From: a virus
Taxonomy: Duplodnaviria > Caudoviricetes
Length of the DNA stretch: 37,036 nt
Strand: one strand, 5' to 3'
Virus record (IMG/VR): IMGVR_UViG_3300005077_000056
Coordinates: 1-37,036 of that record
Shown: piece after piece, positions 1,072 to 37,036 of the stretch
Layout: the number at the start of each line of letters is the position of its first letter
How positions within the stretch are numbered: the stretch's first letter is position 1
Notes under the pieces: generated by a model
The model's input: only the letters and a program-made list of their open reading frames with translations
The model's database searches: none
Told to the model about the DNA's origin: nothing
Made by a program: the position numbers and the translations under genes

Positions 1072-1860
1072 ATGAAGGATCAGCCTGGGAAAAATCCGAC
1101 CATCCGCTGGTACTACAAAGATTGGCTGGCCGACAAGAAACTGCAACGGGCATCGCCCAGTAGCCGGGGAATCTGGATGAACCTGCTGATGCACATGGTC
1201 GACTGCAGCCTCGATGGTGACGACTGCCAGGAGGGCATCCTTGAAGACCTGACGATCATTGAGCTGATGAGTTTGGGTAGCTGCACCGAAGACCAGGCAT
1301 GGAGTTTTCTCGATGAGGCGTTGAAGCATCAATTCTGCGATGTTCAGCTGAATGAAAACGTGACGTTCACGATAATGTCACGCCGATTGTCACGGGATAT
1401 TCAAGCAAAAAAACAGAGATTGTCACGGGATAGTCACGCAAGAGAACAGAACAGAAAAAGAAAACAAAAACAAAGAGATAGAGAGAAGAAGAAAAATAGT
1501 CACGCAGATGTCACGGACGATGTCACGGGCTTGTCACGGCCTATTTCCAGGTCCTTATCCAAGTCCTTATCCAAGTCCGTTCAAAAACAAACCCAAAAGA
1601 AAACCCCCCTCCCCCCCCTTTGGGGGCCGGATCCGGCTCAAAAGAAATACGCCTTGGACCACGGCGTCGCCGAGCAGCATTTCGATGAGTTCGCCGCGTC
1701 GTTTGTCGACTACCACATCAGCCGCGGCAACAAGATGCTGGATTGGGGCCGTGCCTGGCAGACCTTCTGCCGGAATGCGGTCGAATACAGCAAACAATAC
1801 CTGGACCCGAAACGGAAAACCAAAATCCCCGTCAAGGATCTGCCGGATTTTACCAACTGA
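1072..1860 (+). CDS. Phage replication initiator / replisome organiser (YdaU/DUF1376-like N-terminus)
   Basis: N-terminal PTIRWYYKDWLAD...SRGIWMNLLMHM pattern; central low-complexity linker carrying DNA iterons; C-terminal FVDYH...DWGRAWQTFCRN helical domain; directly upstream of DnaB. Start moved to ATG 1072. Confidence 0.75.
   Translation: MKDQPGKNPTIRWYYKDWLADKKLQRASPSSRGIWMNLLMHMVDCSLDGDDCQEGILEDLTIIELMSLGSCTEDQAWSFLDEALKHQFCDVQLNENVTFTIMSRRLSRDIQAKKQRLSRDSHAREQNRKRKQKQRDREKKKNSHADVTDDVTGLSRPISRSLSKSLSKSVQKQTQKKTPLPPLWGPDPAQKKYALDHGVAEQHFDEFAASFVDYHISRGNKMLDWGRAWQTFCRNAVEYSKQYLDPKRKTKIPVKDLPDFTN
1359..1578. repeat. Iteron array, probable replication origin within the initiator gene
   Basis: GTCACG at 1377, 1389, 1422, 1433, 1499, 1510, 1522, 1533 plus an inverted copy at 1359; A-rich tract 1441-1496; GTCCTTATCCAA tandem repeat 1551-1578. 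Confidence 0.8.
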
Positions 1861-2000
1861 CGCGGCCGGAGATCGTCATGGCGGGGCGATCGCAACATGG
1901 TCAATAGGCAGGCATGGGCAACACGCAAAAACCCAGTAAAACGAACGAGGCGAAACCACAGAGGCATCGGCCTTGAAGCCATTGGCTTCCGGGAGGAGAC

Positions 2001-3317
2001 ATGCAGAACAACGTGGAGGTCGAGCTTTCGGTTTTGACCAGCATCCTGTGCTTCCCGCACGACGCCCGGTTTTTCTGCTCGGTCCTCGATCCGGAGGATT
2101 TCAGCGGCAAGCTGCGCCAGGGCGCCTTCAAGGCGATGTGCCGATGCACCGAGGAGCATGGCCAGGTGATCACCGCAATCCTTTCAGGACACTTTGAGAT
2201 AAACCTTGCCAAGTTCTTGAAACAAATCACATATTCAGAGTCCGTCTCCACGAATCCAAAAGCTCATGTGCAGGAGCTTTACCGTTGCCGGCTGGCGCGG
2301 GACATGGAGGTCATCGGCCGGCAGATGGCAAAGGACGCCGGGGAGAAGAAAAACACCGACGAGCTGTATGCCGATTACCAGCAACGCCTGGCCAGGCTGG
2401 AGACCTCCCACACCCTGGTGATGTCGCCGCTGTCGGAGATCATCGAAAAAACCATCGAGCAGGACGAGATGACCTGCAAGGTGGTCCAGGCCGGCGGGCG
2501 CCCCGGCATCCCCTCCGGCCTCGCCGAGCAGGACGAGCTTTTGTGCGGCTTCCGTCCGACCGATTTCGTGATCACCGCGGCCAGGCCCGGCATGGGCAAG
2601 ACCGCCCTGATGCTCTCCGAGGCCATTCACCTGGCCGGCATGGGGATCCCCGTGGGCCTGTTTTCCCTGGAGATGGGCGCCACCCAGCTGGCGCAGCGGA
2701 TGATCTCGGCGCACTCGGGGATCTCGTTTGCGGTCATCCGGGACGGCAGCCTGCGGGGGGACGATTGGATCGGCTACACCGAAGCCGCCGGCAAGGTGCA
2801 CGGTCTGCCGATCCACATCACCGACGCCCCTTCGGCCGACATGAACAAGATCGCGCAGACGGCGCGGCAGGCGATCCGGGACCAGGGGATCCGGATCCTG
2901 TACATCGATTACCTGCAGCTGATCCGGACCCGGCAGGACGTCAAGCGCTGGGAGCAGGTGAGCGAGCTGACGCGCCGGCTGAAGGAGCTGGCTAAAGAGC
3001 TGCAGATCCCGGTGGTGGCCCTCGCTCAACTGAACCGGGACTGCGAGCAACGCATCAACAAGCGGCCGATCCTGGCCGACCTGCGCGAATCCGGGTCGAT
3101 CGAGCAGGACGCCGACGTCGTCCGGTTCATTTATCGCCACGCACAGTATGACCGGGAGATGCCGTCTCTGATCCGGCATGTCACCGAGATCGACGTCAAG
3201 AAGCACCGCAACGGACGCACCGGAACCTGCAAGGTCGGGTTCTGGACCGAGACCCAGCGCTGGGGCGACATCGACAACACCACCAGCGTGCAATACAACG
3301 ATTACATCAGGTCGTAA
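2001..3317 (+). CDS. dnaB: Replicative DNA helicase
   Basis: Walker A AARPGMGKT, FSLEM, IDYLQL, AQLNR and DLRESGSIEQDAD motifs; SD GGAGG upstream. Confidence 0.97.
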   Translation: MQNNVEVELSVLTSILCFPHDARFFCSVLDPEDFSGKLRQGAFKAMCRCTEEHGQVITAILSGHFEINLAKFLKQITYSESVSTNPKAHVQELYRCRLARDMEVIGRQMAKDAGEKKNTDELYADYQQRLARLETSHTLVMSPLSEIIEKTIEQDEMTCKVVQAGGRPGIPSGLAEQDELLCGFRPTDFVITAARPGMGKTALMLSEAIHLAGMGIPVGLFSLEMGATQLAQRMISAHSGISFAVIRDGSLRGDDWIGYTEAAGKVHGLPIHITDAPSADMNKIAQTARQAIRDQGIRILYIDYLQLIRTRQDVKRWEQVSELTRRLKELAKELQIPVVALAQLNRDCEQRINKRPILADLRESGSIEQDADVVRFIYRHAQYDREMPSLIRHVTEIDVKKHRNGRTGTCKVGFWTETQRWGDIDNTTSVQYNDYIRS

Positions 3318-3361: not shown

Positions 3362-3712
3362 ATGATCACAGACGAGAAGGAATTCAGCTTGCGCAACCAC
3401 GACCAGGCCGTCGAGATGTTCGACCTGGCGGCGCAGAAGGCATTCAAGAACATGCTGGACCCGAACACCTCCAGCGACCAGGTCCGCGAAGTGTTCCTGC
3501 GGATGCGCTTCAAGCCGGACCCGGACACCGGCATGGTGACCACCGAGGTGAGCGCCGGCTCCAAGCTGGCGCCGCAGAGGTGCTTTCGGGAGAAGATCAT
3601 CATCGGCTTCGAGGGCGGCAGGTACACGGCCCGCCGGATCAAACAACATCAGCCGCAGCTGCCGCTGGGCGAAGTGATCCGGGTCGGCGGCGCGGGGAAG
3701 GGAGACGCCTAA
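3362..3712 (+). CDS. Conserved phage protein (first of a widespread replication-region gene pair)
   Basis: FD...KAFKNMLDPNT...MRFKP...SKLAP pattern; SD AAGGAG; TAATG overlap with next gene. Confidence 0.75.
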   Translation: MITDEKEFSLRNHDQAVEMFDLAAQKAFKNMLDPNTSSDQVREVFLRMRFKPDPDTGMVTTEVSAGSKLAPQRCFREKIIIGFEGGRYTARRIKQHQPQLPLGEVIRVGGAGKGDA

Positions 3713-4452
3713 TGAACATCATTACGGAAACCATCAACTGGTTGCAGAATCTTCGCCAGGACAGGATCGTCGAGGTGAACGGTCTGAAATACACCGACAG
3801 AAACCTGTGCGAGCTGGAACCCGTGAAGCCCCCGCCGCACCCGACGATCGAGCACGTTCTGACCCTGACCGGGCTGATCGACTACATCCTGCTAGACCCC
3901 GACGAGCAGTACTACCCCGCTTTCGTTTTGATCGAAAGCTACAAGCGGGTCTCCTACGTCACGACGCCGTACGGGGACACCAAAAGCCGGTACGTTCTGG
4001 CCAGGGCAGAGCACTCGTCCTGGTACAACTTCGACGGGTCCGAGCGCGGCGGCATCAATGCCCCGGTTGAAACGGCGATCGTCACGTTGCTGACCTGCTT
4101 CGAGCCATCGGAAGACCGGGAACACCTGCTGGACCTGATCAGCAACATCAGGGTCGACGACGAGACCCGGATCGAGGACGACGGGCTGACCCAGCGGGTG
4201 GCGGTCAAGACCGGGGTCACCACCGTCGAGTCGGTCACCCTATCGCGGCTGGTGACCCTCCGGCCGAGGGTGACGTTCCCCGAGATCGATCAGCCAAACA
4301 TCGTTTACGCCGTGCGGCTGAAACAGGAAGGCGAGCGCTCTGTGCGGGTCAGGCTGCAGCCGCAGGAGGATTTCGGCTGGCACGGGGATGTGGTCGATGC
4401 CATTCTGAAATATCTGAACGTGAACGGGGTGACGCAAAAAATCATCCGGTAA
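3712..4452 (+). CDS. Conserved phage protein (second of the pair)
   Basis: True start ATG 3712 overlaps previous stop; TLTGLIDYI, DDGLTQRVAVKTGV and LRPRVTFPEIDQP motifs typical of this hypothetical family. Confidence 0.8.
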   Translation: MNIITETINWLQNLRQDRIVEVNGLKYTDRNLCELEPVKPPPHPTIEHVLTLTGLIDYILLDPDEQYYPAFVLIESYKRVSYVTTPYGDTKSRYVLARAEHSSWYNFDGSERGGINAPVETAIVTLLTCFEPSEDREHLLDLISNIRVDDETRIEDDGLTQRVAVKTGVTTVESVTLSRLVTLRPRVTFPEIDQPNIVYAVRLKQEGERSVRVRLQPQEDFGWHGDVVDAILKYLNVNGVTQKIIR

Positions 4453-4460
4453 AAATGGGC

Positions 4461-4488
4461 TTGACATTTCCCGGATCCATGCTACGAT
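4461..4488 (+). promoter_or_regulatory. Strong sigma70-type promoter for the accessory gene cluster
   Basis: TTGACA (4461-4466), 16 nt spacer, extended -10 TGcTACGAT (4480-4488); intergenic. Confidence 0.7.
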
Positions 4489-4493
4489 CCATG

Positions 4494-4582
4494 CACACCC
4501 CACCGCCAGATCGGTGTGTGTGTCTCCTCGGGCGGGGGGCTTGGCCGCCTCCCGCCCAACTCCCGCCCACCGGAGGACCGCC
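4494..4582 (+). promoter_or_regulatory. Structured 5' leader with two hairpins and an anti-SD segment
   Basis: Hairpin 4494-4522; 11-bp stem 4530-4540/4547-4557; duplicated CTCCCGCCC; GTGTGTGTCTCCT at 4516-4528 complementary to the downstream start motif. Confidence 0.5.
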
Positions 4583-4795
4583 GTGGCCATCGACGACGGG
4601 CAAAAGAAAAAGACCCTCCGCACGATCGGAAAGTTCGCCGCCTTCCGCAGGGATCCAAAACGCTTCGAGGTTTTCCGCAGGTCGTTCATGGCCCTGTCCC
4701 GTCGTCCCGGCAGGCTCCGCTCGCCGGACAAGGGTGAGACCATGCGGTCGGCCGACAAAGGCGCCGCGTTCCGGCGCGAAAGGAGATTTTCCTGA
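4583..4795 (+). CDS. Small basic hypothetical protein (70 aa)
   Basis: GGAGG 4572-4576, GTG 4583; TGATG overlap with next gene. Confidence 0.55.
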   Translation: MAIDDGQKKKTLRTIGKFAAFRRDPKRFEVFRRSFMALSRRPGRLRSPDKGETMRSADKGAAFRRERRFS

Positions 4796-4983
4796 TGGGA
4801 CTTCCAGCGTGGCTGACATTCGGACGGCTGAAGTACGGCAGGGTGGAGGACGATGAGGAGGAGGAGTCTGAAATCCTTCCGGAGGCCCGGCGCCGCAAGA
4901 AATCCCTGCGCAAGCTCAAGTACGTCCGGCACGGCCAGCAGAAAAAGAAAAAAATGCTGATGGACGAGATCGGGGACATCTGA
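4795..4983 (+). CDS. Small protein with acidic and basic blocks
   Basis: Coupled start; EDDEEEESE followed by K/R-rich tracts; GC3-rich codons. Confidence 0.6.
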   Translation: MGLPAWLTFGRLKYGRVEDDEEEESEILPEARRRKKSLRKLKYVRHGQQKKKKMLMDEIGDI

Positions 4984-5003
4984 CCCCGCGGGGGAGACAC
5001 GCC

Positions 5004-5336
5004 ATGAGGTGGATGATTCTGGCAGCGGTTGCCTCCCTGGCAGCCGCCGCGATCATCGGGCATTGCGGCCGATCCGGCGCCGAACCCTACCGCATCGAAC
5101 AAATCGAAATCGAATTCGTAAAACTTTGCCAGGAGCAGGTGCTGCTGGAGGTGAAAGCCGGCCGCCAGGGCGGCGTTCTGGACCTGGAGGACCGGGCCCG
5201 GTACGTCGAGGTCCTGCGCAACCAGGAGGCGCTGGCCGATCTCTACATGCGTCTGATGAAGGAGGAGCTGACATGCCTGACGATTATGAGGGCGATTACC
5301 ACCGGAAGGACTCCGGGGGTTTCCGCAAAACATTGA
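5004..5336 (+). CDS. Secreted or membrane-anchored hypothetical protein
   Basis: N-terminal hydrophobic segment MRWMILAAVASLAAAAIIGHC; start sits in the repeat motif. Confidence 0.65.
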   Translation: MRWMILAAVASLAAAAIIGHCGRSGAEPYRIEQIEIEFVKLCQEQVLLEVKAGRQGGVLDLEDRARYVEVLRNQEALADLYMRLMKEELTCLTIMRAITTGRTPGVSAKH

Positions 5337-5446
5337 GGCACGTTTACGGGTTCATCAACCGCATCAGCCGTCGAGACAAGCCGACCCGGAAAAAGCGCAC
5401 GATGCTCGCACGGCAGTCCACGGGGGTCGCCGGGGCCCGCGGGTGA
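5273..5446 (+). CDS. Small basic hypothetical protein (57 aa)
   Basis: GGAGGAG SD 5261-5267, ATG 5273; TGATG coupling to the next ORF; 64-nt overlap with the previous gene. Confidence 0.45.
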   Translation: MPDDYEGDYHRKDSGGFRKTLRHVYGFINRISRRDKPTRKKRTMLARQSTGVAGARG

Positions 5447-5619
5447 TGGAAAGCAGTTTCGAGCTGACGGTGGAGTGCGCCTTCTGCGAGGCCCTGCTGT
5501 CCCTGAAGGTCAACACCGTGATCGGCGCGGCCACCAGGCTGCCCAGGTGCCCGGCCTGCAATCAGCTTCTGCTGCTCGAGTACGAGGTGCTCCTGATCGA
5601 AAAGGGGCCAGGTGGCTGA
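5446..5619 (+). CDS. Zinc-ribbon protein (57 aa; absent from the ORF track)
   Basis: Manual translation MESSFELTVECAFCEALLSLKVNTVIGAATRLPRCPACNQLLLLEYEVLLIEKGPGG with two CxxC pairs. Confidence 0.7.
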   Translation: MESSFELTVECAFCEALLSLKVNTVIGAATRLPRCPACNQLLLLEYEVLLIEKGPGG

Positions 5620-5809
5620 CATCCGGAAGGCACTGCTGCTTTGCGTTCTGGCCGCGGCCCTGATCGCTGCGGCCCTGGTGGTGCTGTTCCTCAAGCTGAT
5701 AGGAGAGGACGATGGCTACATGGTTCAAGACGGCGGCCGCCGGCCTGGTGATCGTGATCGGGCTGGTGGGATCGATATGGGGGCTGCCGAAGGTCTTCAC
5801 CACGGTTGA
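5612..5809 (+). CDS. Small membrane protein
   Basis: Long hydrophobic helix ALLLCVLAAALIAAALVVLFL; 3' part overlaps next gene. Confidence 0.45.
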   Translation: MADIRKALLLCVLAAALIAAALVVLFLKLIGEDDGYMVQDGGRRPGDRDRAGGIDMGAAEGLHHG

Positions 5810-6077
5810 ACGGCACGAGATCGACCAGGAGACCATCAAGAGCGAGCTGGCCGGCATGGGCGCCGAGCTGGCCGGGGTCAGCCTGAACCAGCAGGCCGAG
5901 GGCAGCCGCAATCAGATCCGGTGGCTGCAGCAGGAGCTGTACGAGATCGAAAAACAATACGGCACCGACCCCTCCAGGATGCCCCCGGAGGTCCGCAGGA
6001 GATACCTGGAGCTGATCCAGCAGCTGGAGGACGAGCGCCGGTTTTACAATGACATCCGCACCAAGCTCAAAAAGTGA
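5712..6077 (+). CDS. Membrane-anchored coiled-coil protein
   Basis: GGAGAGG SD; N-terminal TM helix then heptad-rich charged region. Confidence 0.7.
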   Translation: MATWFKTAAAGLVIVIGLVGSIWGLPKVFTTVERHEIDQETIKSELAGMGAELAGVSLNQQAEGSRNQIRWLQQELYEIEKQYGTDPSRMPPEVRRRYLELIQQLEDERRFYNDIRTKLKK

Positions 6078-6113
6078 AATATGTCAATCAGTATAAACAT
6101 TTGAGAGGTGCAA

Positions 6114-6314
6114 ATGCTGTCGATCAAACAATGGTTCGGCCTGGAGGACGAGTTCGGCGGCCTGAAGCTCCTGCGTCTTCTGACCACCGAAACCGAGGCC
6201 GTCAGCTTCGCCTTTTCCCCGATGGGGATCGGGCTGTTCGTCTGGCGCCGGGCCAAGCTGCAGGATGCCTGGGTGGTGCGCACCGACGCCTATCACCTGG
6301 TGGGCGTGTCGTGA
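6114..6314 (+). CDS. Hypothetical protein (66 aa)
   Basis: GAGG SD 6105-6108, ATG 6114; GTGA overlap with next ORF. Confidence 0.6.
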   Translation: MLSIKQWFGLEDEFGGLKLLRLLTTETEAVSFAFSPMGIGLFVWRRAKLQDAWVVRTDAYHLVGVS

Positions 6315-6499
6315 AAATCAAGTGCCGATTCTGCGGGTGGGAGACCACCGCCTGGGCCAAAAACAAGAAAGGCAAGCCCAGGCACGGCTACGACCGCCTC
6401 ATGCGGCATGTGGAGCTGCACCACCCAGAAATGCTAACGAAGGTGCAAGCCTATTGCGAACAGGGGGTCGAGGAGCCCCCGGAGGGAGACACGCCATGA
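6311..6499 (+). CDS. C2H2-like zinc-finger protein (62 aa)
   Basis: GTG 6311 coupled start; CRFC...HVELHH; ATGA overlap with next gene. Confidence 0.6.
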   Translation: MKIKCRFCGWETTAWAKNKKGKPRHGYDRLMRHVELHHPEMLTKVQAYCEQGVEEPPEGDTP

Positions 6500-6786
6500 G
6501 GAGGTGCGAGGTGAAAGTTATTAAAAAAATGCGGGATGAGGTCGTTCGATTCGCCGAGGCGATGGAACTCGTTCTGGCCGCCAACGATCACAAGTCCGGC
6601 TGGGGGGACCTCAAGCCGACAGAGATTCTGGTCCGGCTCAAGATGGAGCTGAAGGAGCTGGAGGAAAGCCTGATAGACCAGGATCCGGAAGAGGCCATGC
6701 ACGAGGCCGTGGACATCGCCAACTTCGCGATGTTCCTCTGGACCAACCTGCACTTCGGGGAGACACGCCATGGAGCTGACGCCTGA
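6496..6786 (+). CDS. MazG-like all-alpha NTP pyrophosphohydrolase
   Basis: ELKELEE...HEAVDIANFAMF acidic metal-binding pattern; start in the repeat motif. Confidence 0.65.
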   Translation: MRRCEVKVIKKMRDEVVRFAEAMELVLAANDHKSGWGDLKPTEILVRLKMELKELEESLIDQDPEEAMHEAVDIANFAMFLWTNLHFGETRHGADA

Positions 6787-6976
6787 AAACAAGCTGCACA
6801 TCGATTCCCTGCCGTACCCCCACCTGCTGCGGCACCTGCGCTTCGCCCCGGACGGCGACCCTTGGTTCCAGGGAGAGACCGGGGCCTATTGGCTCGAACG
6901 GATGAACGAGCTGCGAACCCAGGGGGCCGACCATGTCGGAGCCTCCAAAACCATCGGGTGGGATCCACCCGCATGA
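6770..6976 (+). CDS. Conserved small phage protein
   Basis: Start in repeat motif; LLRHLRFAP.GDPWFQGETG.YW pattern. Confidence 0.75.
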   Translation: MELTPENKLHIDSLPYPHLLRHLRFAPDGDPWFQGETGAYWLERMNELRTQGADHVGASKTIGWDPPA

Positions 6977-7002
6977 GATTCTACAGCAAAGGAGACACGC
7001 AC

Positions 7003-7401
7003 ATGGACCTGCGACCCATGCTCGACAAGATCTCGATGCTCGAAGGCAGCCTGCCCAACACCACCCGATCCGAGGTCATCCACTCCCGCTGCATGTTGAT
7101 GATGGCCGAGGTCACGGTCAAGCAGCTGATCGTCGTGGCCGAGGTCGCCGACCAGATCCGGAAGATCGCCGCCAACCTCCCAAACGACCCCCTGGCAAAA
7201 GCCGAAATGGCGGCCCCCAGGAAACCAACCCAAACCCCTCCCCCAGGAGGGGGAACCCCAAAACCCACCGACACCCAGGAGAAGGTCCAGGACCCCAAGC
7301 CGGCCGAAAAAAAACTTGACACCTTGTCCGGCAACGTGTCTACTAACCAAGAAAGTCTGGCAGGGCTGGCCGAATTCGACCTGCCCGCGAAATCAAAATA
7401 G
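7003..7401 (+). CDS. Hypothetical protein with Pro/Lys-rich tail
   Basis: AAGGAG SD within the variant repeat, ATG 7003. Confidence 0.65.
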   Translation: MDLRPMLDKISMLEGSLPNTTRSEVIHSRCMLMMAEVTVKQLIVVAEVADQIRKIAANLPNDPLAKAEMAAPRKPTQTPPPGGGTPKPTDTQEKVQDPKPAEKKLDTLSGNVSTNQESLAGLAEFDLPAKSK

Positions 7402-26072: not shown

Positions 26073-27331
26073 TGGTCAGCAGCATCAAAAATGCGAGGGA
26101 CACCGCGGTCGGCCGGGAAAGCGGCAAACGCTTGTATGTGTCGCCCAAGGAATACCAGGACCAGATCCGCAGGGGCACCATCAAGGGATTCGACCAAGGT
26201 GCGCAGCCCTGGTCGGAGTTCGAGAAGCCCTACTGGGAAGACTCGTACGAGGAGATGGAATATTTCATGTGGAATTGGCCGGGATTCGCGCCGTGGCGCT
26301 GGAATTTCAACTTCGACAATCCCTCCATTCCGACCAATTTGCAGGGCAGCCTGGGGGGCACCGACTTTTTGGTTTGCGATTGTTTCACCCTTGGTGGATT
26401 CTGCCCCGGAGACACGCGGTGCATCGCCATGGATTGCACCTATCCGATTGTCGGGGTCCAGTTTTCGCAGCGATGGGCCGAGCGGGAATTCTCGGTCGAG
26501 ATCCAGAATGAACAGACTATCTGCATAACAGCCACCGAGGACGCCTCGCTGGGGGTCGAACTGGACATCTACATGCAGCTGCCGAGCGGAAACATCTGCG
26601 TCGAAGAGGACCTGTTGATCGGGACGGCGTCCGATTGCGAGGATTGCGACACCGCCGATCCAATGGAGGCCGGTCCCGACAATCCAACGGTGGTGGTCGA
26701 CGGCACCAATTACCGCATCGACGTCATCAATGGCGTCGGGCCGTTTACCTGGGTTGTGACGGCGCTCGACAGCGCCGATGTCAGCCTGCAATGGGCCATC
26801 GGGGACCGCCGCTACAATTACCTGAACGTGGTTGACGGGTGCGGATCGATCAGCGTCACGGTGACCGACAGCTGCGGCACGATCGTGGTGCTTTTTTTCT
26901 ATTCGGATGACGGAATCTGGCAGGAGTGCGAAGGATACCAAACGGGCGGCAACTGCTTCGATGATTCGCCGGTCGATTGCCCCCTTTTTTTTATTTTCGG
27001 TGGCTACCTGTTGGACGCTACTGAAGACAATGAACATCGATTCAGCTTCGGCGACCGGATTTGGCGATACAGGCGGCCGGTGACGGCGTCGTCTTGTAAT
27101 GATATCGGCCTGCCATATTGCTGCGAAGACACGAGTCCGGATTGCAGTCCCAATCCTCCCTGTTTTGGCATTTTCGATTTTTCAGCACCTTTTACTTGTT
27201 CGTTATACGGCTATCCGGATGTGGAAGCCCCCTGCTACAACCCGTGCGGAGGCAAGGGGGCGACGGGACGATGCGGGATCAGCCACCCGGCCGGAGATGG
27301 CATAAGCCTCGAATTCTACAGGTGCGATTGA
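26072..27331 (+). CDS. Cysteine-rich virion-module protein (419 aa, 24 Cys)
   Basis: TGATG coupling at both ends; Ig-like GVGPFTW...ISVTVTDSCG segment; Cys-dense C-terminus. Confidence 0.75.
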   Translation: MVSSIKNARDTAVGRESGKRLYVSPKEYQDQIRRGTIKGFDQGAQPWSEFEKPYWEDSYEEMEYFMWNWPGFAPWRWNFNFDNPSIPTNLQGSLGGTDFLVCDCFTLGGFCPGDTRCIAMDCTYPIVGVQFSQRWAEREFSVEIQNEQTICITATEDASLGVELDIYMQLPSGNICVEEDLLIGTASDCEDCDTADPMEAGPDNPTVVVDGTNYRIDVINGVGPFTWVVTALDSADVSLQWAIGDRRYNYLNVVDGCGSISVTVTDSCGTIVVLFFYSDDGIWQECEGYQTGGNCFDDSPVDCPLFFIFGGYLLDATEDNEHRFSFGDRIWRYRRPVTASSCNDIGLPYCCEDTSPDCSPNPPCFGIFDFSAPFTCSLYGYPDVEAPCYNPCGGKGATGRCGISHPAGDGISLEFYRCD

Positions 27332-29722: not shown

Positions 29723-29738
29723 ATTGGAGCATGGGAAA

Positions 29739-32700
29739 ATGCCCAATATTCTTGACTACTACGGATTCAAGTTCGAGGACGACGAGCCCGAGGTTCCGAG
29801 CGAACCACAAGCACCCGCCGCGCAACCCTCGCGGAACGTCCTGGACTACTACGGATTCCAGCTGGACGACCCCGACTTCGATCCGGAGGGCGGCGATTAC
29901 GACTACAAGTCGGCCAACCAATACGGCATCACGCCGGACGAGACCGGGCACTACCCCTCCCGCAACCCCGTGACCGGGCAGATACTCAAGGGACGCGCCC
30001 ATCCCACCTGGGCCCTGACCGAGCAGACCGAACTGGACTCCGGCTACGAGATCTTCCAGGGCGAGGACGGCAAGTACTACAGCCGAAAGAACGTGATGGC
30101 CGGCCCGAAATTCGAGCCGGCGACGGTCCTGGACCTCTACGGGTTCAAGTTCGAGGACGACCCCAACCGCCAGATGGTGCGCCGCAACCTGCCTGAAAAA
30201 CTGCTCCACATGGGCAAGCGGATCAATATGGCCCTGCCGCAGGTGGTCAGGGGACTCGCCGTGTATGAGCAGGCCCGTGCGATGCAGCACCGCAAGCTGA
30301 TGCTGGAGGAGGTGCTGGGCCCGAACGCCACCGAGGAGATGCGCGAGCGGGTGATGCGAGAATCCCAGCAGGATTACGAGCGGGCGAAACGGGTCGAGGC
30401 GACGGTTCCGGACATCCCCGAGAAAGCCTTCGAGGGGGGAGTCATGGGCGTCATCGAGGACGCCCTGGTCGGCCTGGCGCAATTCGCTCCGGTGATGGCG
30501 GTCACTCCGTTCTCGCCGGGCGCCAGCTATTTCATCACCACCGCGATGATTGCCGGGGACAAATACCGGGAACTGAAACAGGAGGGCAAATCCGACGACG
30601 TCGCCTGGAAAGCCAGCAACATGAGCGGCCTGCTCCAGGCCGGAGCGGAGGTGGCCGGCAATGCGGTACAGCTTTCGCAGCTGGGCAAAATTTTGAATGT
30701 AACCCTGAAGGAGCCCGGCAAGATCGTCGCCAAAAAGATGGCGGTGCCTCTCACGCGCAGGGTGGTGGACGGCATCTGGAAAAACGCCGCGACCGAGGGA
30801 ATAGAGGAGATCCAGCAAAAGATGCTCGATGTGATCCCCTCGGTGTGGGCGAACGATCCCAGCGTGCAGGACGACGTCGGCCGGTGGGCAGACGAGGTCC
30901 TCACCGCCTGGAAGGACCCGAAGTTCATCAAGGAAGCTCTTTACGAAGGACTCGTCGGAGCCGTCGGGGGCGCGATTCTGCCGGTGGGCGCCGGGATGGT
31001 ACAGCTCCCGTTCGAGAAAACCAGGGCCAAAAGGGGCGGGGACATCGCCGAGGCCGCCTTCGGAAAAGACGTCTCCGGCAAGCTCAACGATGCCGCCAAG
31101 GTGCTGGTCAACGAAGCGGCCCACGGCAGGATCGACAGGGACGGCGCCGAGCGCCTGGCGAACGAGCTGCAGGCCGCAGGCGCCGAGCAGAGCCCGATTC
31201 TGCAGGATCTGAATCGGTTGCTGGCCGGCGAGCCGATCGAGAACCTTCCGGTGCGGGCAGAGGAGATCGTCGGAGAAGAAGCCGCCGCGGCGCCGGCCGC
31301 CATCGGGGAAGAGGCCGCCATCTCGGTGGAAGGTCAGGGGGGCGAGATCGAGGGGGTCTCCGAAACCTTCGCCGGAATGCTCACCCCCGAGGACGCAGGG
31401 GCGATCGTCGAGGCCGAATCCACGCCCGAACGCCAGGGGATCCAGAGGATCGCCGCCGCCCTCGGCCTCAAGGTCACCTTCTACAAAGCCCCGACACAGT
31501 CCACGGCTGACAACGTGAACGGCTTCTACCACAAGGAACGCGGCCGGGTCTACATCAACGAGACCGCTGTCAACCCCGCCCTGGTGGTCCTGGGGCACGA
31601 GTCGTTCCACCGGCTGGAAAGAGAGGACCCGGAGCTTTTCAAGAGAGTGATCGACCTGACCCAGCAGACCGCCGCGAACTTCGACCAGTACGTCGAGGGC
31701 CTGAACAAGGACCGCCGGGCCGCCGGCCTGCGGGAGTTCGACATAACCAAAGAGGACGACCGCCGGCAGCTGGTGGCCGAGTTCGGCGCGGACATCGTCG
31801 GCCAGCAATTCGCCGACCCGAAGTTCTGGCGCCGGCTCAACAAGATCGACCCAACCATGGCCCAGCGCATCGCCCAGGTGGTCAGCGACATCATCGAGGC
31901 GCTCAAGCGGGTTTTCCGACGGCAGAACCTGGTGGCTCCCGCCGAACTGGAACGGGTCCAGGAGGAGATTGCGAAGGTCTACGGGGAACGCGTCGTGCGG
32001 GCCGAGAGACGCAGGGTCGAACGCCGCAAGAAAAAGGTCCCGGTTGCCGAGGAACGCCGCAAGGCCGAGCGCAGGATGCCGGAAACCAAGCAGGAAACCG
32101 AAACCCTGCTGGAGATGGAGGCCGAAGAGTTGGCCCGCCGGCTGGGTCATGCCAGGGCAGAGGGCGCCCCCACCGATGCGATATACGAGGACCACATCGA
32201 AACGCAGAAACAGCTCATCCGCGGCCTCGCCCAGGCCGCATTCGTGGATCCGCAGATGGGCATCAAAAGCAAAATCCCTTGGCTGCGGCTCAAAGCGCTG
32301 GAAAGCGAAATGCCGGTGGAACAGCGCAAGTGGAAGGTCTTCTTCGATCTGGACAATTTCAGCTGGTACAACGACGTCCTGGGGCATAACATCGGCGACA
32401 AAATCATAGAGGTCGTCGGAAAAGTGTTCCAGATGCACGCCGTTGATCCGTACCGCATCGGCGGCGAGGAGCTGGTGGATGTCCTCGACACCCGTGAACA
32501 AGCTGAAAGGGTGGCTAAAAAAATCAGAAACATCATCGAAAATCATCTCTACCTCCAAGCTAATATTCACGAATCTGTCACGACCAAGGATAATGTATTT
32601 TACAAGGGGGGGGACGTTTACATCTCCCACGGCATAGGAGTCAGCTATGGCATCGACCAAGACATCGACAACGCCGACAAAAAACTCCTCGCAGAAAAGA

Positions 32701-35700
32701 AAAGACGGGAAAAAGAGGGACTCCGCAGTCCCAAGGGTGCGATCCCTGTCCGAGTCCGTAAGCGACCTGCCCCTGCTGAAGCGGGCTTTAGACCTGAAAT
32801 CCTTCCGAGTAATTTGGGAGAAATAGCCAACCTCTCGGTCAAAAACGTCAAGCCCTGGCCGGAGGATTTTCCGCTGGTGCAGACCCTGACCTCGGTCGCC
32901 TGGATGAGGGCCCACCCCCTCTATCAGGACGCGAAAAACGGGGATGTCGGGGCAGCCCTGGAGATCGGCGAGGAGATCATCGGGCGCAAGCCGGACCTGG
33001 CCCGGCAACTCGCGGAGAGCTATCCCGAAGCCCTGCTGGTGCCCGTGGTGGCAGAGGAGGCGCAGGGACGGAATGCGATCCCTCTCGGAATGGCGTTCGC
33101 CCTCGAGCAGGCCACCGGACTGCCGATCCACGAGGGGATCGTCCAGGTCAACCTGACCGGGCACACCGGGGCGTCCGCGATCCATCGGTTCCTGTCGAGA
33201 GCCGTGTTCAGCGGCCCCGTCGAAACCGGTAGGGAATACGTCCTGGTGGACGATGCGGTCACGATGGGAGGCACCCTCTCCAGCCTGCGGCATTACATCG
33301 AAAACGAAGGCGGCATCGTGCGGGCGGTGGTCACCGCCGGCGCCGCCAAGGACAGCACGCAGCTGGCCCCGAGGGCCGCCACACTACAAAAACTGGAGGA
33401 AAAGCATGGCATCAAAACGACCGAAAAGATACTCCAACAGCTCGGCATCACCGGCAGGGCCCATGCTCTTACCGAGGGAGAAATCAACTGGATTCTATCC
33501 TTCGCCAATCTTGACAACCTCCGGAGTCGACTCGTTGAGGAAATTCGCGAGCGAGGCGCTCAAGCAGATGCGGAGCTTGCGGAAGCCGAAAGACAGCGAC
33601 TGAAAAGAAAGCGCAAAGCCGTCGTCCCTCTGCCGGCAAGGCCCGTTCCGGCGCCGGTCAAGGCCCCGTCCCTGGAGGCGATGGTGACCGACCGGATCGT
33701 GTCGGCGTACGCCCGCAACTATGCCGATGCTCCCGGATTCGTGCGGACGCTGCGCAGGGGCATAGGACAAAAGGCCTGGGAGAGCATGAGCCGGGAGGAG
33801 CAAATCGCCGAGGCCCGCCAGTACGTCGAGGCCGACATCGAGCAGGCCAAAAGAGAGATCGGCGACCGGAACCCGGTCGACTACCTGATGGACCGGGCGC
33901 TGGACCCCCTGGACCCGGCCAATGAGTTCTACGCCGAGATCCTGCGCCGGCAGGGAGCCAGGGTGGTCGCCGGCGAAGCCGTGGAGCTGTCGGAGGGCCT
34001 GCGGGACATGCTCGCCCTGACGGCCGAGCCGGTCGAACTGCTGGACGCCAGCACCGACGAGCGCTTCAAGGCGTGGGTGGCGCAGCAGGAAAAGACCAGG
34101 GACCCGGAGCGCCACCGCCGCATGGTCGAATCGTTCGGCCCGGACATCCTGCCGATCGGCCAGGCCGGCGATCCGGAGGTCGTCGCATCGGTCAAAGAGC
34201 GGGAATGGACGGTCGATTTCAATCAAACCGCATTCGGGATAGTGAACAATCGGATCAGCCGGGAGCTGGATGTGTTCGAGCAGCTGTTCGGCCCCAGCAA
34301 GCTGGTTCAGGAGTTCCCTGGAAAAGAAGTCGAAGGCAAAAGACCGTTGACCCGGTCGATCACGCCCTATCATTTACTGCAGGAGATATACCGGGTGATC
34401 GACGAGGGCCAGGTGCGGGAGATCCTCAACCGATCGATCGACCCCATGGAGCTGGCCAAATCCAGGGGGTTCAAGGGTGAGCAGGCCGCGAACTTCGTCA
34501 AAAAAGTGAAGATGATGCGCACGGGCAGTCTGTATATGCCGTCGGAGGAGAAGGGTGGGGAGCTGTTGTCGGAAAACGCCAAGGCCGGCGCCAGCGCCGA
34601 CTTTTTGCTGGCCACCTGTCATCCGACCGAGGAATGCGTGGTGTGCTACGCCGCAAGAACCATGATCCGGCAGACTCCTATCGAAAAAGCATTCCGCAAC
34701 ACTTTTCACATTCTTGTCGACCCGATCGGGTGGGCAGAACGGGTGGCCGCCGAGGTGTCCAGGGCCGGCGGCGTTGGTGTGCACAGCAAGGTCGCCCTGC
34801 CGTTCATCCGGCTGCAGGGATCGGGGGACCTCACCACGACCGAGCAGCTGGCCGCATACAACCATTTGGCGAAGCTGACCGACCGGCCGATCCAGATATT
34901 CAGCCGGCACCACGATATGCTGCGTCAGCTCAAGGGAACGCAGAACGCCCCGTTTTTGAAAATGGGCAGCGTCGACATGATGCTGTTCGAGCACCTGGGG
35001 ATCGACTACCTGATCGCGAACCAGCACAAGCACGGCATCGCCAACGCCTATCTCGTGTTCGATCCGACAACCGACAACCCCATCATCACCGAGCTGTCAA
35101 AAGCGAGGGCGCTCGGGCTGACGCTGTCGGTTCGCCCGAAATACCACGACATGATCGAGGACCTGGCTGCCCGCCAGCGGGGCTGCCCGTGCGACGCGCA
35201 GGAACGGGCCATGTATTCCAGCTGCCGGCAATGCGCGGGCTCCAATGCCGGGTGCTTCACCGCCTTCGCCGAAATGGTCACCACCAAGACCGGCCGGCTG
35301 GTGTACGCCAACGATCCCAAACGCCCGCGGGGCACAAAACCCGTTCTGCGGTTTTTGGCCGGAGTGCCGGAACGGGCCGGCTTCGACGCCGACACGCAGC
35401 TCTGGATGGAGACGGCGGTCAGGGTCATCCGGCAGGGCATAAAGCACGCCCAGCTGAACATCAGAAACTTCACCGGCCCGGTCATCCGGGACACGCAGGG
35501 ACCGAACATCGGGAAGATCAACCCGAAGAAGGTCAAAAAGTGGCAGGCGGCCTACAAGGCCGGCGAGCTTGCCGATCACATCATCGTGAAGGACGTCCGC
35601 TGGGAGAACAGTACTGAAAAGATCGACCCTATCGAGGACCTGAAAGACCTCGACAGCTACGACAAGCGGATCAATAGCTCGGCGGTCAAGATGGCCAGGG

Positions 35701-36827
35701 CCCACATCGAGAACCTGCGGCTGCAGGAGAAGGTCGCCAGGATGGGCAAGTTCATCCTGCCCGGCGGCAGAATCCAGCCGGGGGTGGCGTTCAAGGACGG
35801 CACGCGGCTGGCCGACGCCTCCCTGATCTCCGATGAAGACGCCAAAGACGCGGCTTTTTCGGTCAAGCCGTCCGACAAATACCAGGTCGGCAAACAAGCC
35901 GGGCCCGCGGTGTATGTGCATCGCCACTACGAAAGCCTGCTGCCCAAGGTGGACGAGGCGAAGCGCTACATCGGCAGGTGGCAATACGAGGTGGTCAAGC
36001 ACAACGCCGAAACCGGCAACTTTTCATTCATTCAATCCCCGGACTTCGACACGGCAGACGAGCCCATCGTCGGCGACGCCCTGCTGGTGAGGCCGGACGG
36101 CAGCACGAAGATCATCCGGCAAGCGGACGACCCGTGGATCTACCACCACAAATGGATGATGGTCGACGAGAGCTACGAGGGCTTCAGCTATCACGATTCC
36201 CGGCTGCGCAGCGAGGCGTGGGACGGCTTGTCAGGAGTGGACCGCACCCGCATCGGCAAGAAGTCCTACTGGGAAAAACACATCGCCTCCAGGATCCCCC
36301 CGGTGGAGTCCATTCGCCTGCAAAAACAGCTGTTCGCCAACGGGGAGGTCGCGGCCGCCAACCGAACCGCCAGGAGCGGAGGAGCCGTGGGCGAGAACGC
36401 CATCGTCATCCGCACGGTGCTGCAGATGGCGAAAGACGACCCCTCCCTGCTGGAGGAGGGCGTGCTGGATTTCGGCGCCGGCGTGCCCGATTCGACCGGC
36501 AAGCTGCGCCATGTCGAAAAGCTCAAGGCGGCCGGGTTCACCGAGGTGGCCGCCCATGAATTCGGGAAAAACTTCGATGCGCGGGTCCACGATCAGACCG
36601 CCCTGCAGCGCCAGCACCGGCTGGTGTACGCCTCCAACGTCCTGAACGTCCAAAGCTCCCTGGACATGTTCGACGCGACCCTCAAGCAACTGGTCGACGC
36701 CACCGCGGACGAGAACGGCCGGCTGGTGGTCAACGCCGGCGTCCAACAAGCGCGACGTCCGCTACAGCATCAAGTTCCGGGCAGACCGAATCGTCATGGA
36801 AGACCGCCAATTCCGGCTGTGGTTTGA
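29739..36827 (+). CDS. Giant polyvalent virion protein (metallopeptidase, GGDEF, PRTase, gp88-like Fe-S, methyltransferase)
   Basis: HESFH 31596-31610; DLDNF..YND..GH..GD and GGEEL 32460-32474; YVLVDDAVTMGGT from 33237; TCHPTEECVVCYA near 34617 and IRLQGSGD; DFGAG 36468-36482. Start set at ATG 29739; the last 30 or so codons are probably out of frame. Confidence 0.88.
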   Translation: MPNILDYYGFKFEDDEPEVPSEPQAPAAQPSRNVLDYYGFQLDDPDFDPEGGDYDYKSANQYGITPDETGHYPSRNPVTGQILKGRAHPTWALTEQTELDSGYEIFQGEDGKYYSRKNVMAGPKFEPATVLDLYGFKFEDDPNRQMVRRNLPEKLLHMGKRINMALPQVVRGLAVYEQARAMQHRKLMLEEVLGPNATEEMRERVMRESQQDYERAKRVEATVPDIPEKAFEGGVMGVIEDALVGLAQFAPVMAVTPFSPGASYFITTAMIAGDKYRELKQEGKSDDVAWKASNMSGLLQAGAEVAGNAVQLSQLGKILNVTLKEPGKIVAKKMAVPLTRRVVDGIWKNAATEGIEEIQQKMLDVIPSVWANDPSVQDDVGRWADEVLTAWKDPKFIKEALYEGLVGAVGGAILPVGAGMVQLPFEKTRAKRGGDIAEAAFGKDVSGKLNDAAKVLVNEAAHGRIDRDGAERLANELQAAGAEQSPILQDLNRLLAGEPIENLPVRAEEIVGEEAAAAPAAIGEEAAISVEGQGGEIEGVSETFAGMLTPEDAGAIVEAESTPERQGIQRIAAALGLKVTFYKAPTQSTADNVNGFYHKERGRVYINETAVNPALVVLGHESFHRLEREDPELFKRVIDLTQQTAANFDQYVEGLNKDRRAAGLREFDITKEDDRRQLVAEFGADIVGQQFADPKFWRRLNKIDPTMAQRIAQVVSDIIEALKRVFRRQNLVAPAELERVQEEIAKVYGERVVRAERRRVERRKKKVPVAEERRKAERRMPETKQETETLLEMEAEELARRLGHARAEGAPTDAIYEDHIETQKQLIRGLAQAAFVDPQMGIKSKIPWLRLKALESEMPVEQRKWKVFFDLDNFSWYNDVLGHNIGDKIIEVVGKVFQMHAVDPYRIGGEELVDVLDTREQAERVAKKIRNIIENHLYLQANIHESVTTKDNVFYKGGDVYISHGIGVSYGIDQDIDNADKKLLAEKKRREKEGLRSPKGAIPVRVRKRPAPAEAGFRPEILPSNLGEIANLSVKNVKPWPEDFPLVQTLTSVAWMRAHPLYQDAKNGDVGAALEIGEEIIGRKPDLARQLAESYPEALLVPVVAEEAQGRNAIPLGMAFALEQATGLPIHEGIVQVNLTGHTGASAIHRFLSRAVFSGPVETGREYVLVDDAVTMGGTLSSLRHYIENEGGIVRAVVTAGAAKDSTQLAPRAATLQKLEEKHGIKTTEKILQQLGITGRAHALTEGEINWILSFANLDNLRSRLVEEIRERGAQADAELAEAERQRLKRKRKAVVPLPARPVPAPVKAPSLEAMVTDRIVSAYARNYADAPGFVRTLRRGIGQKAWESMSREEQIAEARQYVEADIEQAKREIGDRNPVDYLMDRALDPLDPANEFYAEILRRQGARVVAGEAVELSEGLRDMLALTAEPVELLDASTDERFKAWVAQQEKTRDPERHRRMVESFGPDILPIGQAGDPEVVASVKEREWTVDFNQTAFGIVNNRISRELDVFEQLFGPSKLVQEFPGKEVEGKRPLTRSITPYHLLQEIYRVIDEGQVREILNRSIDPMELAKSRGFKGEQAANFVKKVKMMRTGSLYMPSEEKGGELLSENAKAGASADFLLATCHPTEECVVCYAARTMIRQTPIEKAFRNTFHILVDPIGWAERVAAEVSRAGGVGVHSKVALPFIRLQGSGDLTTTEQLAAYNHLAKLTDRPIQIFSRHHDMLRQLKGTQNAPFLKMGSVDMMLFEHLGIDYLIANQHKHGIANAYLVFDPTTDNPIITELSKARALGLTLSVRPKYHDMIEDLAARQRGCPCDAQERAMYSSCRQCAGSNAGCFTAFAEMVTTKTGRLVYANDPKRPRGTKPVLRFLAGVPERAGFDADTQLWMETAVRVIRQGIKHAQLNIRNFTGPVIRDTQGPNIGKINPKKVKKWQAAYKAGELADHIIVKDVRWENSTEKIDPIEDLKDLDSYDKRINSSAVKMARAHIENLRLQEKVARMGKFILPGGRIQPGVAFKDGTRLADASLISDEDAKDAAFSVKPSDKYQVGKQAGPAVYVHRHYESLLPKVDEAKRYIGRWQYEVVKHNAETGNFSFIQSPDFDTADEPIVGDALLVRPDGSTKIIRQADDPWIYHHKWMMVDESYEGFSYHDSRLRSEAWDGLSGVDRTRIGKKSYWEKHIASRIPPVESIRLQKQLFANGEVAAANRTARSGGAVGENAIVIRTVLQMAKDDPSLLEEGVLDFGAGVPDSTGKLRHVEKLKAAGFTEVAAHEFGKNFDARVHDQTALQRQHRLVYASNVLNVQSSLDMFDATLKQLVDATADENGRLVVNAGVQQARRPLQHQVPGRPNRHGRPPIPAVV

Positions 36828-37036
36828 AGATTCAAAAGTCGTGAACCAAAACGGCACACCGAAGATCGTTTACCACGGCACGAGCTACGACGTCGAGGAG
36901 TTCGGCGGCCGCCACGCCCCCGCGGACCTGCCCAGGCTCGGGTGGCATTACTTTACCGAGAACGCCAAGATGGCAGAAAAATTCTCGGTTAGCGGAGAGC
37001 CGCTGCCCAAAACCTACGACGGCCGCCGGCGCCCGG
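36736..37036 (+). CDS. ADP-ribosyltransferase-like (ART-PolyVal-type) domain in the +1 frame, 3'-truncated
   Basis: Manual translation PASNKRDVRYSIK...FRLWFEDSKVVNQNGTPKIVYHGT...GWHYFTENAKMAEKF; frame open from 36646 to window end. Confidence 0.8.

Follow-up and report, generated by a model that had tools for sequence, protein, structure and literature searches.

We analyzed a 37,036-base phage contig (IMG/VR record IMGVR_UViG_3300005077_000056, completeness estimate 65%; hereafter the window) and found that a predicted leader RNA at positions 4495-4582 probably occludes, by antisense pairing, the ribosome-binding sites (RBSs) of several of the phage's own genes. At the level of predicted pairing and sequence comparison, we show the complementarity itself, its restriction to genes preceding the terminase, its conserved position and a change of the leader segment (the seed) matched, lineage by lineage, by a change of the motif at the starts (the address). 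An earlier note on this DNA, made from its letters alone, had proposed that such a leader silences several genes through a shared address; the co-variation between leader and motif agreed with this proposal, whereas a strict ranking of the starts as the best matches of the leader did not emerge.

All coordinates of the earlier note proved correct. The segment 4516-4528 (GTGTGTGTCTCCT) pairs over 13 bp, including one G-U, with 6990-7002, in a helix that extends to 15 bp with two G-U, and the starts at 5004, 6496 and 6770, for which at least 10 pairs had been claimed, form 12, 11 and 12 contiguous bp with the seed, respectively. A fifth target, missed by that note, lies upstream of the leader at the start of the DnaB-like helicase gene (Table 1). 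The exact motif GGAGACACGC is present in five copies, all on the plus strand, four of them at starts and one (26408) in a predicted coding region. The shorter GGAGACA occurs six times on the plus strand, five times at starts, including that of the DnaB gene at 1995, and its complement TGTCTCC is found as a single copy on this strand, in the leader. The count of the motif alone is modest, with nine matches (at most one mismatch) versus a mean of 4.51 and with 3/100 shuffles reaching nine, while the chance of encountering GTGTCTCC in a random 100-nt stretch is P ~0.001. Since the motif alone is unremarkable, the claim is founded on the presence of its complement on the same strand, behind a promoter, and on the relatives.

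A terminase search yielded 80 loci, among which L032 (record G001) also carries homologs of the phrog_1029 gene and of the small basic gene located upstream and downstream of the leader in the window, at 3712-4452 and 4795-4983. Between these two genes, G001 displays a promoter-like site, a hairpin, GCCTCCTCTCG and a 10-bp G/C stem, and its leader constitutes a test at a position fixed in advance. At this syntenic spot, the leaders of G001 and G006 carry CCTCCTCTC and the early starts use GAGAGGAGG. On the 28-kb coding strand of G001, AGAGGAGG is found in five copies, all at early/middle starts (phrog_997, phrog_1029 and three downstream genes), whereas the late genes (14 kb) hold none. The complement of this motif is found a single time, in the leader, and G001 lacks GGAGACAC. 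Two near relatives of G001, namely G006 and L155, share its seed; compared with G001, an internal deletion has shortened their hairpin 1 while preserving the base of the stem, and they add the address at the start of a DnaD-like replication gene and at two starts of a leftward operon, one of them RecT-like. A further leader was identified in G043, an integrase-bearing Desulfatibacillum prophage, in which a promoter and two hairpins follow the phrog_1029 gene: the leader carries GGCACCCCCCTC, and CCCTCG twice, the starts use GGGGGTGCCATG, and the loop of hairpin 2 pairs over 14 and 11 bp with the first two starts of the leftward operon. The closest relative of the window, L151, has GGAGACA at starts in 5/5 copies, two on homologs of the window genes 5004 and 7003 and three on other genes. 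Equivalents of hairpin 2 are present in G001 and G006 (10 bp), in L151 (13 bp) and in G043. As G006 and L155 are not independent of G001, the comparison covers three lineages, each with an address of its own that is matched chiefly by the leader of that lineage, which is the outcome that the earlier note had asked of related phages.

Specificity was evaluated in a cross-matrix of whole leaders against starts, counting helices of -15 kcal/mol or lower and excluding the starts of the leaders' own genes. Early starts were matched by their own leader in 5/16 cases in the window, 5/10 in G001, 9/21 in G006 and 4/22 in G043. With foreign leaders, the window starts gave at most 1/16 each (0-1), those of G001 gave 0/10 with the window leader and 2/10 with that of G043, those of G006 gave 4/21 and 2/21 with the same two leaders, and those of G043 gave 1/22 with the window leader and 0/22 with the G001 or G006 leaders. 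The starts of L151 were matched by the window leader (5/9) and by none of the others (0/9), and late starts were matched by their own leader in 1/22, 2/21 and 1/9 cases. Dinucleotide-shuffled leaders reached the summed energy of the best four helices in 1/300 trials for the window, 0/300 for G001, 0/300 for G006, 2/1000 for G043 and 0/300 for L151 with the window leader. After weighting by accessibility, starts provide five of the top six helices in G001 (n=470) and the top four in L155 (n=136). A descriptor combining a promoter, an anti-Shine-Dalgarno (anti-SD) core and a strong stem was run on 264 loci (2.9 Mb, redundant) and returned 17 rows, namely the window, 11 copies of G001/G006, three copies of G043 and two unrelated loci. 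Pattern scans (46 and 73 loci), which mostly retrieved reverse strands of ordinary RBSs or chance matches, were used as controls. An address-free scan of control loci found at least two RBS helices in 2/576 promoter-proximal stretches and three in none; it recovered two of the four known elements, missing the window and G001, and so cannot show absence. A loose k-mer detector was too noisy and was dropped.

The leader follows a predicted sigma70-type promoter that had been presented as the best of the window: in a scan of all but positions 35001-37036, it ties at 10/12 consensus bases with sites at 893 and 12582 and stands alone in having a TG-extended -10 box. Promoter-like hexamers occupy the equivalent place in G001 and G006, where they were read by eye, and also in G043. 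The -10 box of the window promoter is straddled by a 9-nt direct repeat, GATCCATGC, whose copies at 4474 and 4486 are 12 bases apart. This repeat is a possible operator; it was not seen in G001, G006 or G043. The leader itself is predicted to fold into two hairpins separated by a linker, with a folding z-score of -3.06 over 4494-4572 versus only -1.25 over 4494-4586. The duplicated CTCCCGCCC and the Shine-Dalgarno sequence (SD) of the first gene at 4570-4577 are present as claimed, and the switch that the earlier note attached to them is energetically possible in the window, where the fold using the far copy lies 1.8 kcal/mol above the minimum free energy (P ~0.09). However, G001, G006 and L151 lack the duplicated partner for the G-rich arm, and this lack of conservation weighs against the switchable part of the proposal. 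No Rfam family matched at its gathering score in the window or in seven relative loci, and the assignment of the leader to sot2652 (20.8 bits for a gathering score of 61) was rejected. A blastn search of the leader against phages gave nothing beyond a 21-nt chance match, and the exact leader pattern had no match in viral contigs.

According to the mechanism that we favor, 4495-4582 would be transcribed from the 4461 promoter as a two-hairpin RNA whose exposed UCUCCUC (4523-4529) would nucleate pairing. Hairpin 1 would then open to give a duplex of 11-15 bp over the SD, the spacer and sometimes the AUG, which would block ribosome loading and turn down DnaB and four small genes together, the effect being presumably repression rather than another outcome. 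Four of the window targets are downstream of the leader, probably on the same transcript. Action in trans is suggested by the other targets, which lie ahead of the leader (window, G001 and G006) or within a divergent operon (G006 and G043), and the RNA may hence reach separately transcribed genes. No plus-strand intrinsic terminator was detected near 4530-4600 in the window, and no U-tract follows hairpin 2 in the four phages inspected; the active form would thus be the intact 5' leader or a piece trimmed to hairpin 2, and a free RNA would have to arise by processing or by some other type of termination. Given the location of the promoter between the replication module and the packaging genes, the likeliest role is an early-to-late damping of replication and other early/middle proteins, while the maintenance of lysogeny is possible as an alternative timing.

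Several observations weigh against this explanation. In the window, helix prediction weighted by accessibility with a 78-nt RNA did not place the four starts of the earlier note as the top genome-wide matches in the strict sense: the 7003 start (rank 3) and the DnaB start (rank 6) are the only targets among the top 12 of 962 helices, because the C-rich tail of the leader pairs with G-rich coding sequence in predicted helices stronger than those between seed and starts. For the coding-region sites at 30331 and 26408, pairing with the seed is also about as good as for the starts. GGAGACAC is frequent among phage RBSs, being found at two or more starts in 21 of the 119 loci selected for GTGTCTCC, and G006 has it at two starts with no separate complement in the sequence examined. 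The threshold of -15 kcal/mol was chosen by us (-17 gave the same pattern), and the lists of starts were partly curated by hand once the motif was known. By match count, shuffled leaders reach the value of the window in 11/300 trials, a modest result, and that of G043 in 86/1000, which is not significant and makes the support from G043 weaker. The G043 match moreover emerged only after the leftward operon was added, the rightward genes giving no repeated match, and its seed resides in the loop of hairpin 2, not in the linker. The G001 seed is near a generic anti-SD sequence and also matches 4/22 late starts of the window. The L151 contig begins exactly at the 13-bp equivalent of hairpin 2, so its seed is cut off. 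L152 and L153 keep the basic gene and a promoter and have no leader at that place, and no such leader was found at 16 other Desulfobacterota and seven viral phrog_1029 loci, where nothing beyond one hairpin or a tRNA-like stretch was present. Only three independent lineages are available in total.

Among the other explanations, a purely cis-acting 5' leader that hides or exposes the SD of the first gene, the other matches being an anti-SD by-product, appears unlikely. It would be in keeping with the pairing of the linker with the own SD (P ~0.27), with the alternative fold within 1.8 kcal/mol, with one G001 fold that pairs the linker with the own SD, with the location of the G043 own SD in a stem and with the absence of an intrinsic terminator. 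However, the complementarity passes the SD core into spacer bases missing from the own RBS, whose helix with the seed spans only 5 bp; as the own SD lacks the extended address, cis pairing does not account for the extension. Among random 14-mers forced to hold the anti-SD core, the five matches of the window were reached in 0/600 trials (and the four of G001 in 2/600 and 15/600), and the addresses change with lineage.

The main non-functional rival, to which we give marginally less credit, is that the complement descends from one of the RBSs of the phage, as a relic or an inverted copy coming from a lost leftward gene or a recombination cassette, and follows the RBS dialect of its lineage without any pairing function. 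Such an origin would explain the lineage matching without selection for pairing and would fit the frequency of GGAGACAC among phages; in G043 the minus-strand copy is one base, in the start codon, from a real start, and in G001 an ATG 12 nt past the core opens a 56-codon frame. G006 has nevertheless lost this ATG, and no leftward start is conserved, the window offering only a CTG at 14 nt and a GTG at 20 nt for a real spacing of 5-8 nt. No minus-strand promoter pattern exists within 250 nt in any of the four phages. These negatives on starts and promoters weaken the relic origin, and the copy lies between or within conserved hairpins, directly behind a plus-strand promoter.

The motif could also be the site of a phage protein, such as a RegA- or RegB-like repressor or nuclease or a DNA-binding protein, the leader copy being then an inverted DNA site. 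T4 early mRNAs are shut off by proteins at SD motifs (PMC3014915), and a conserved basic small protein is encoded just downstream of the leader. We consider this improbable, as most seed-target mismatches are at positions that tolerate G-U, which suits RNA pairing, as G043 has a leader and no match to the basic protein while L152 has the protein and no leader, and as no family could be assigned to this protein. Finally, in a reversed pairing, early mRNAs would open the leader and free its SD, or the leader would stabilize or activate its partners. The competition between seed and own SD, seen for the window and for one fold of G001, would fit such a reversal, but it is highly improbable since the duplexes cover the target SD up to the AUG, a geometry of repression, and since the own SD of G043 is hidden by a segment other than the seed.

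Table 1. Predicted elements of the leader, its targets and surrounding genes in the window.
Feature	Position	Strand	Remark
Predicted sigma70-type promoter, TTGACA-16-TG-TACGAT	4461-4488	+	10/12 consensus bases, TG extension
Non-coding leader, candidate antisense RNA	4495-4582	+	5' end inferred from promoter spacing
Hairpin 1	4494-4522	+	Predicted; masks the seed's 5' half
Seed, complementary to the GGAGACAC(GC) address	4514-4529	+	4523-4529 mostly unpaired in prediction (0.35-0.93)
Hairpin 2	4530-4557	+	Predicted; 11-bp G/C-rich stem
Second CTCCCGCCC copy, alternative partner for the G-rich arm	4560-4568	+	P ~0.09; not conserved
Own SD of the first ORF (4583)	4570-4577	+	Linker pairing P ~0.27
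Target: SD and start codon of the DnaB-like helicase gene	1993-2005	+	Predicted; 13 bp, 2 G-U
Weaker possible target: RBS of the phrog_1029 gene	3700-3708	+	9 bp, -13.8 kcal/mol
Predicted target: RBS of ORF 5004-5336	4991-5002	+	12 bp; motif kept in L151 homolog
Predicted target: RBS of ORF 6496-6786 (phrog_18269)	6484-6494	+	11 bp
Predicted target: RBS of ORF 6770-6976	6757-6768	+	12 bp
Predicted target: RBS of ORF 7003-7401	6990-7004	+	15 bp; motif kept in L151 homolog
Motif copy inside a predicted coding region	26408-26417	+	No convincing start
Replication initiator	1072-1860		PHROG match, weak
DnaB-like helicase gene	2001-3317	+	PHROG match
phrog_997 and phrog_1029 genes	3362-4452		PHROG match
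phrog_1029 gene	3712-4452	+	Upstream synteny marker in window, G001, G006, G043
Run of small unnamed genes	4583-7401		
First open reading frame (ORF) behind the leader	4583	+	Start GTG
Small basic gene	4795-4983	+	Downstream synteny marker in G001, G006, L151; also in L152/L153, where the leader is absent
Terminase	8329		PHROG match
Portal	10373		PHROG match
Major head protein	13889		PHROG match

The gene order on both sides of the leader promoter, with the replication module before it and the packaging genes after it, is the same in G001 and G043. Relatives of the capsid protein, with 50-67% identity, were found in 4/401 genomes from the order of a Desulfatibacillum metagenome-assembled genome, which makes Desulfobacterota the probable hosts of the window phage. 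The integrase family phrog_1 had no match in the window, G001 or G006; as an integrase was found in G043 only, a temperate lifestyle is shown for G043 alone. The product of the small basic gene is a K/R-rich protein with a conserved C-terminal MDEI motif. It had seven matches in 1.8 billion representatives (six full-length and one corresponding to a stretch of a 1,081-aa protein), gave no lead to a family or a fold, Atlas lookup included, and had no match in a word search, in genome contigs, in 41 terminase-related records or in GenBank phages. The possibility that ORF 4583 is a paralog of this protein was rejected (hhalign probability 1.3%). At the other end of the window, 29724-36827 encodes a protein of 2,367 aa whose residues 872-995 resemble a GGDEF domain (Pfam PF00990, E 3.6e-9) and which also has several matches to unnamed PHROGs.

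A scan for close relatives with the phrog_1029 protein alone gave none, and further searches in Desulfobacterota added no informative locus. Other features were observed in the loci collected. In L032, one small gene has two in-frame starts 39 bases apart (3394-3450), each with a full GAGAGGAGGC address, an arrangement conserved in L155, and about 3 kb of short degenerate repeats (GCGAGCCA and AGAAAACC units; 3700-6980) separate the small genes from the terminase small subunit. In the leftward leader of G043 (L243, 1370-1570), an untranslated G/C-rich stretch of about 200 nt follows the leftward promoter ahead of the two genes that bear the G043 address; it had no Rfam match. L152 has, at 630-762, a promoter and, some 100 nt further, a hairpin followed by a U-tract, ahead of the replication gene; this stretch includes a weak TCCTTTTC complement to the commonest RBS of that phage, AAAAGGAG. 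TRNA-like stretches, judged by eye, directly follow the phrog_1029 stop in the Desulfobacterota prophage loci L246 and L249. On the minus strand of L094 (8066-7930), an unrelated AT-rich phage, a TTGACA/TATAAT promoter is followed by about 100 nt that contain a TGTG(T/C)CTCC seed in three near-copies, with complementarity to starts of the genes that follow (15 bp for one and 11 bp for another); this looks like an independent case of the same logic as judged from predicted pairing, in a locus that had been selected by a pattern containing that seed.

Several published systems share features with the leader. The c4 RNA of P1 and P7 is cut from a larger transcript and pairs at an RBS of its own phage, and its specificity differs between sister phages via matched changes of RNA and target (PMC5320573, PMC12197685). 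It is composed of three stem-loops (P1-P3) with two loop seeds, a' and b', matures via RNase P and targets the message of an antirepressor (PMC5320573). The window leader resembles c4 in its predicted occlusion of RBSs with a phage-specific, matched specificity. It differs by its two side-by-side hairpins and linker, by a single seed in the window, G001 and G006, and by at least five dispersed targets (DnaB and unnamed small genes), replication genes included. We take the CI RNA of P4 to be similar to c4. No antirepressor family was detected among the 42 window proteins scanned from this 65% complete contig, and the C4 family of Rfam was absent even among sub-threshold matches. The best reading is hence a leader with c4-like logic that is not a member of c4.

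StxS, the PR' leader sRNA of Shiga-toxin phages, is a short 5' RNA of the transcript that follows the replication region and represses a message of its own operon; it ends at the intrinsic terminator tR' under the control of Q, binds Hfq and targets stx1AB as well as the host rpoS (PMC7547250). The promoter of the window leader is similarly located between the replication region and the packaging genes. In contrast, the window leader shows no tR'-like terminator or U-tract after hairpin 2, no Q family was found among the window proteins scanned, and the targets predicted for it are several phage starts with a motif in common. The Start Associated Sequence (SAS) of Cluster K mycobacteriophages is an asymmetric repeat that occupies the place of the RBS and conserves bases lacking any pairing to 16S rRNA; its authors leave open an RNA or a protein partner and mention, in a supplement legend, a site on the complementary strand in three genomes (PMC3203893). 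The window motif is likewise a repeated asymmetric motif that extends beyond the SD core at RBSs (GGAGACA at starts for 5/6 copies in the window and 5/5 in L151), but it belongs to another sequence and host and departs from the Cluster K consensus, and no partner RNA is named for SAS in the available part of PMC3203893. The B11 small RNA of Mycobacterium abscessus represses many genes via complementary RBS sequences (PMC10470900), but is described there as a stand-alone chromosomal RNA acting on host genes, not as a phage leader with a lineage-specific address. In T4, RegB and RegA ensure a co-ordinated shut-off of early mRNAs at translation initiation regions (PMC3014915), which is protein-based and involves no antisense RNA. 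B11 and these T4 proteins are analogues of the proposed leader RNA in function.

The tested phage antisense RNAs c4, sar and OOP each address one message (PMC12197685), and a literature search whose coverage left out most subscription journals revealed no tested case of a phage RNA directed at many genes of its own phage through a common RBS signature. We would tentatively suggest, as a possibility still less likely than its contrary, that many phages run an RNA-addressed translational regulon, in which a short structured RNA, driven by a strong promoter and complementary to a private RBS signature of replication and other early genes, shuts these off as a set; the RNA would co-evolve with this signature, and sister phages would not read each other's address. 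Predictions follow for the closest relative: if the antisense reading is true, a TGTGTCTCC-type seed is expected within about 15 nt of the first base of L151, with a hairpin, a promoter and a phrog_1029 gene ahead of it. Three natural seed/address pairs are now available for swapping, and these pairs bear on the purpose of start-associated repeats. If true, such a regulon would act generally as a switch based on RNA, either early-to-late or for immunity, could account for orphan repeats at starts, those of Cluster K mycobacteriophages among them, and would add a new layer of phage developmental control reaching the replicative helicase or initiator.
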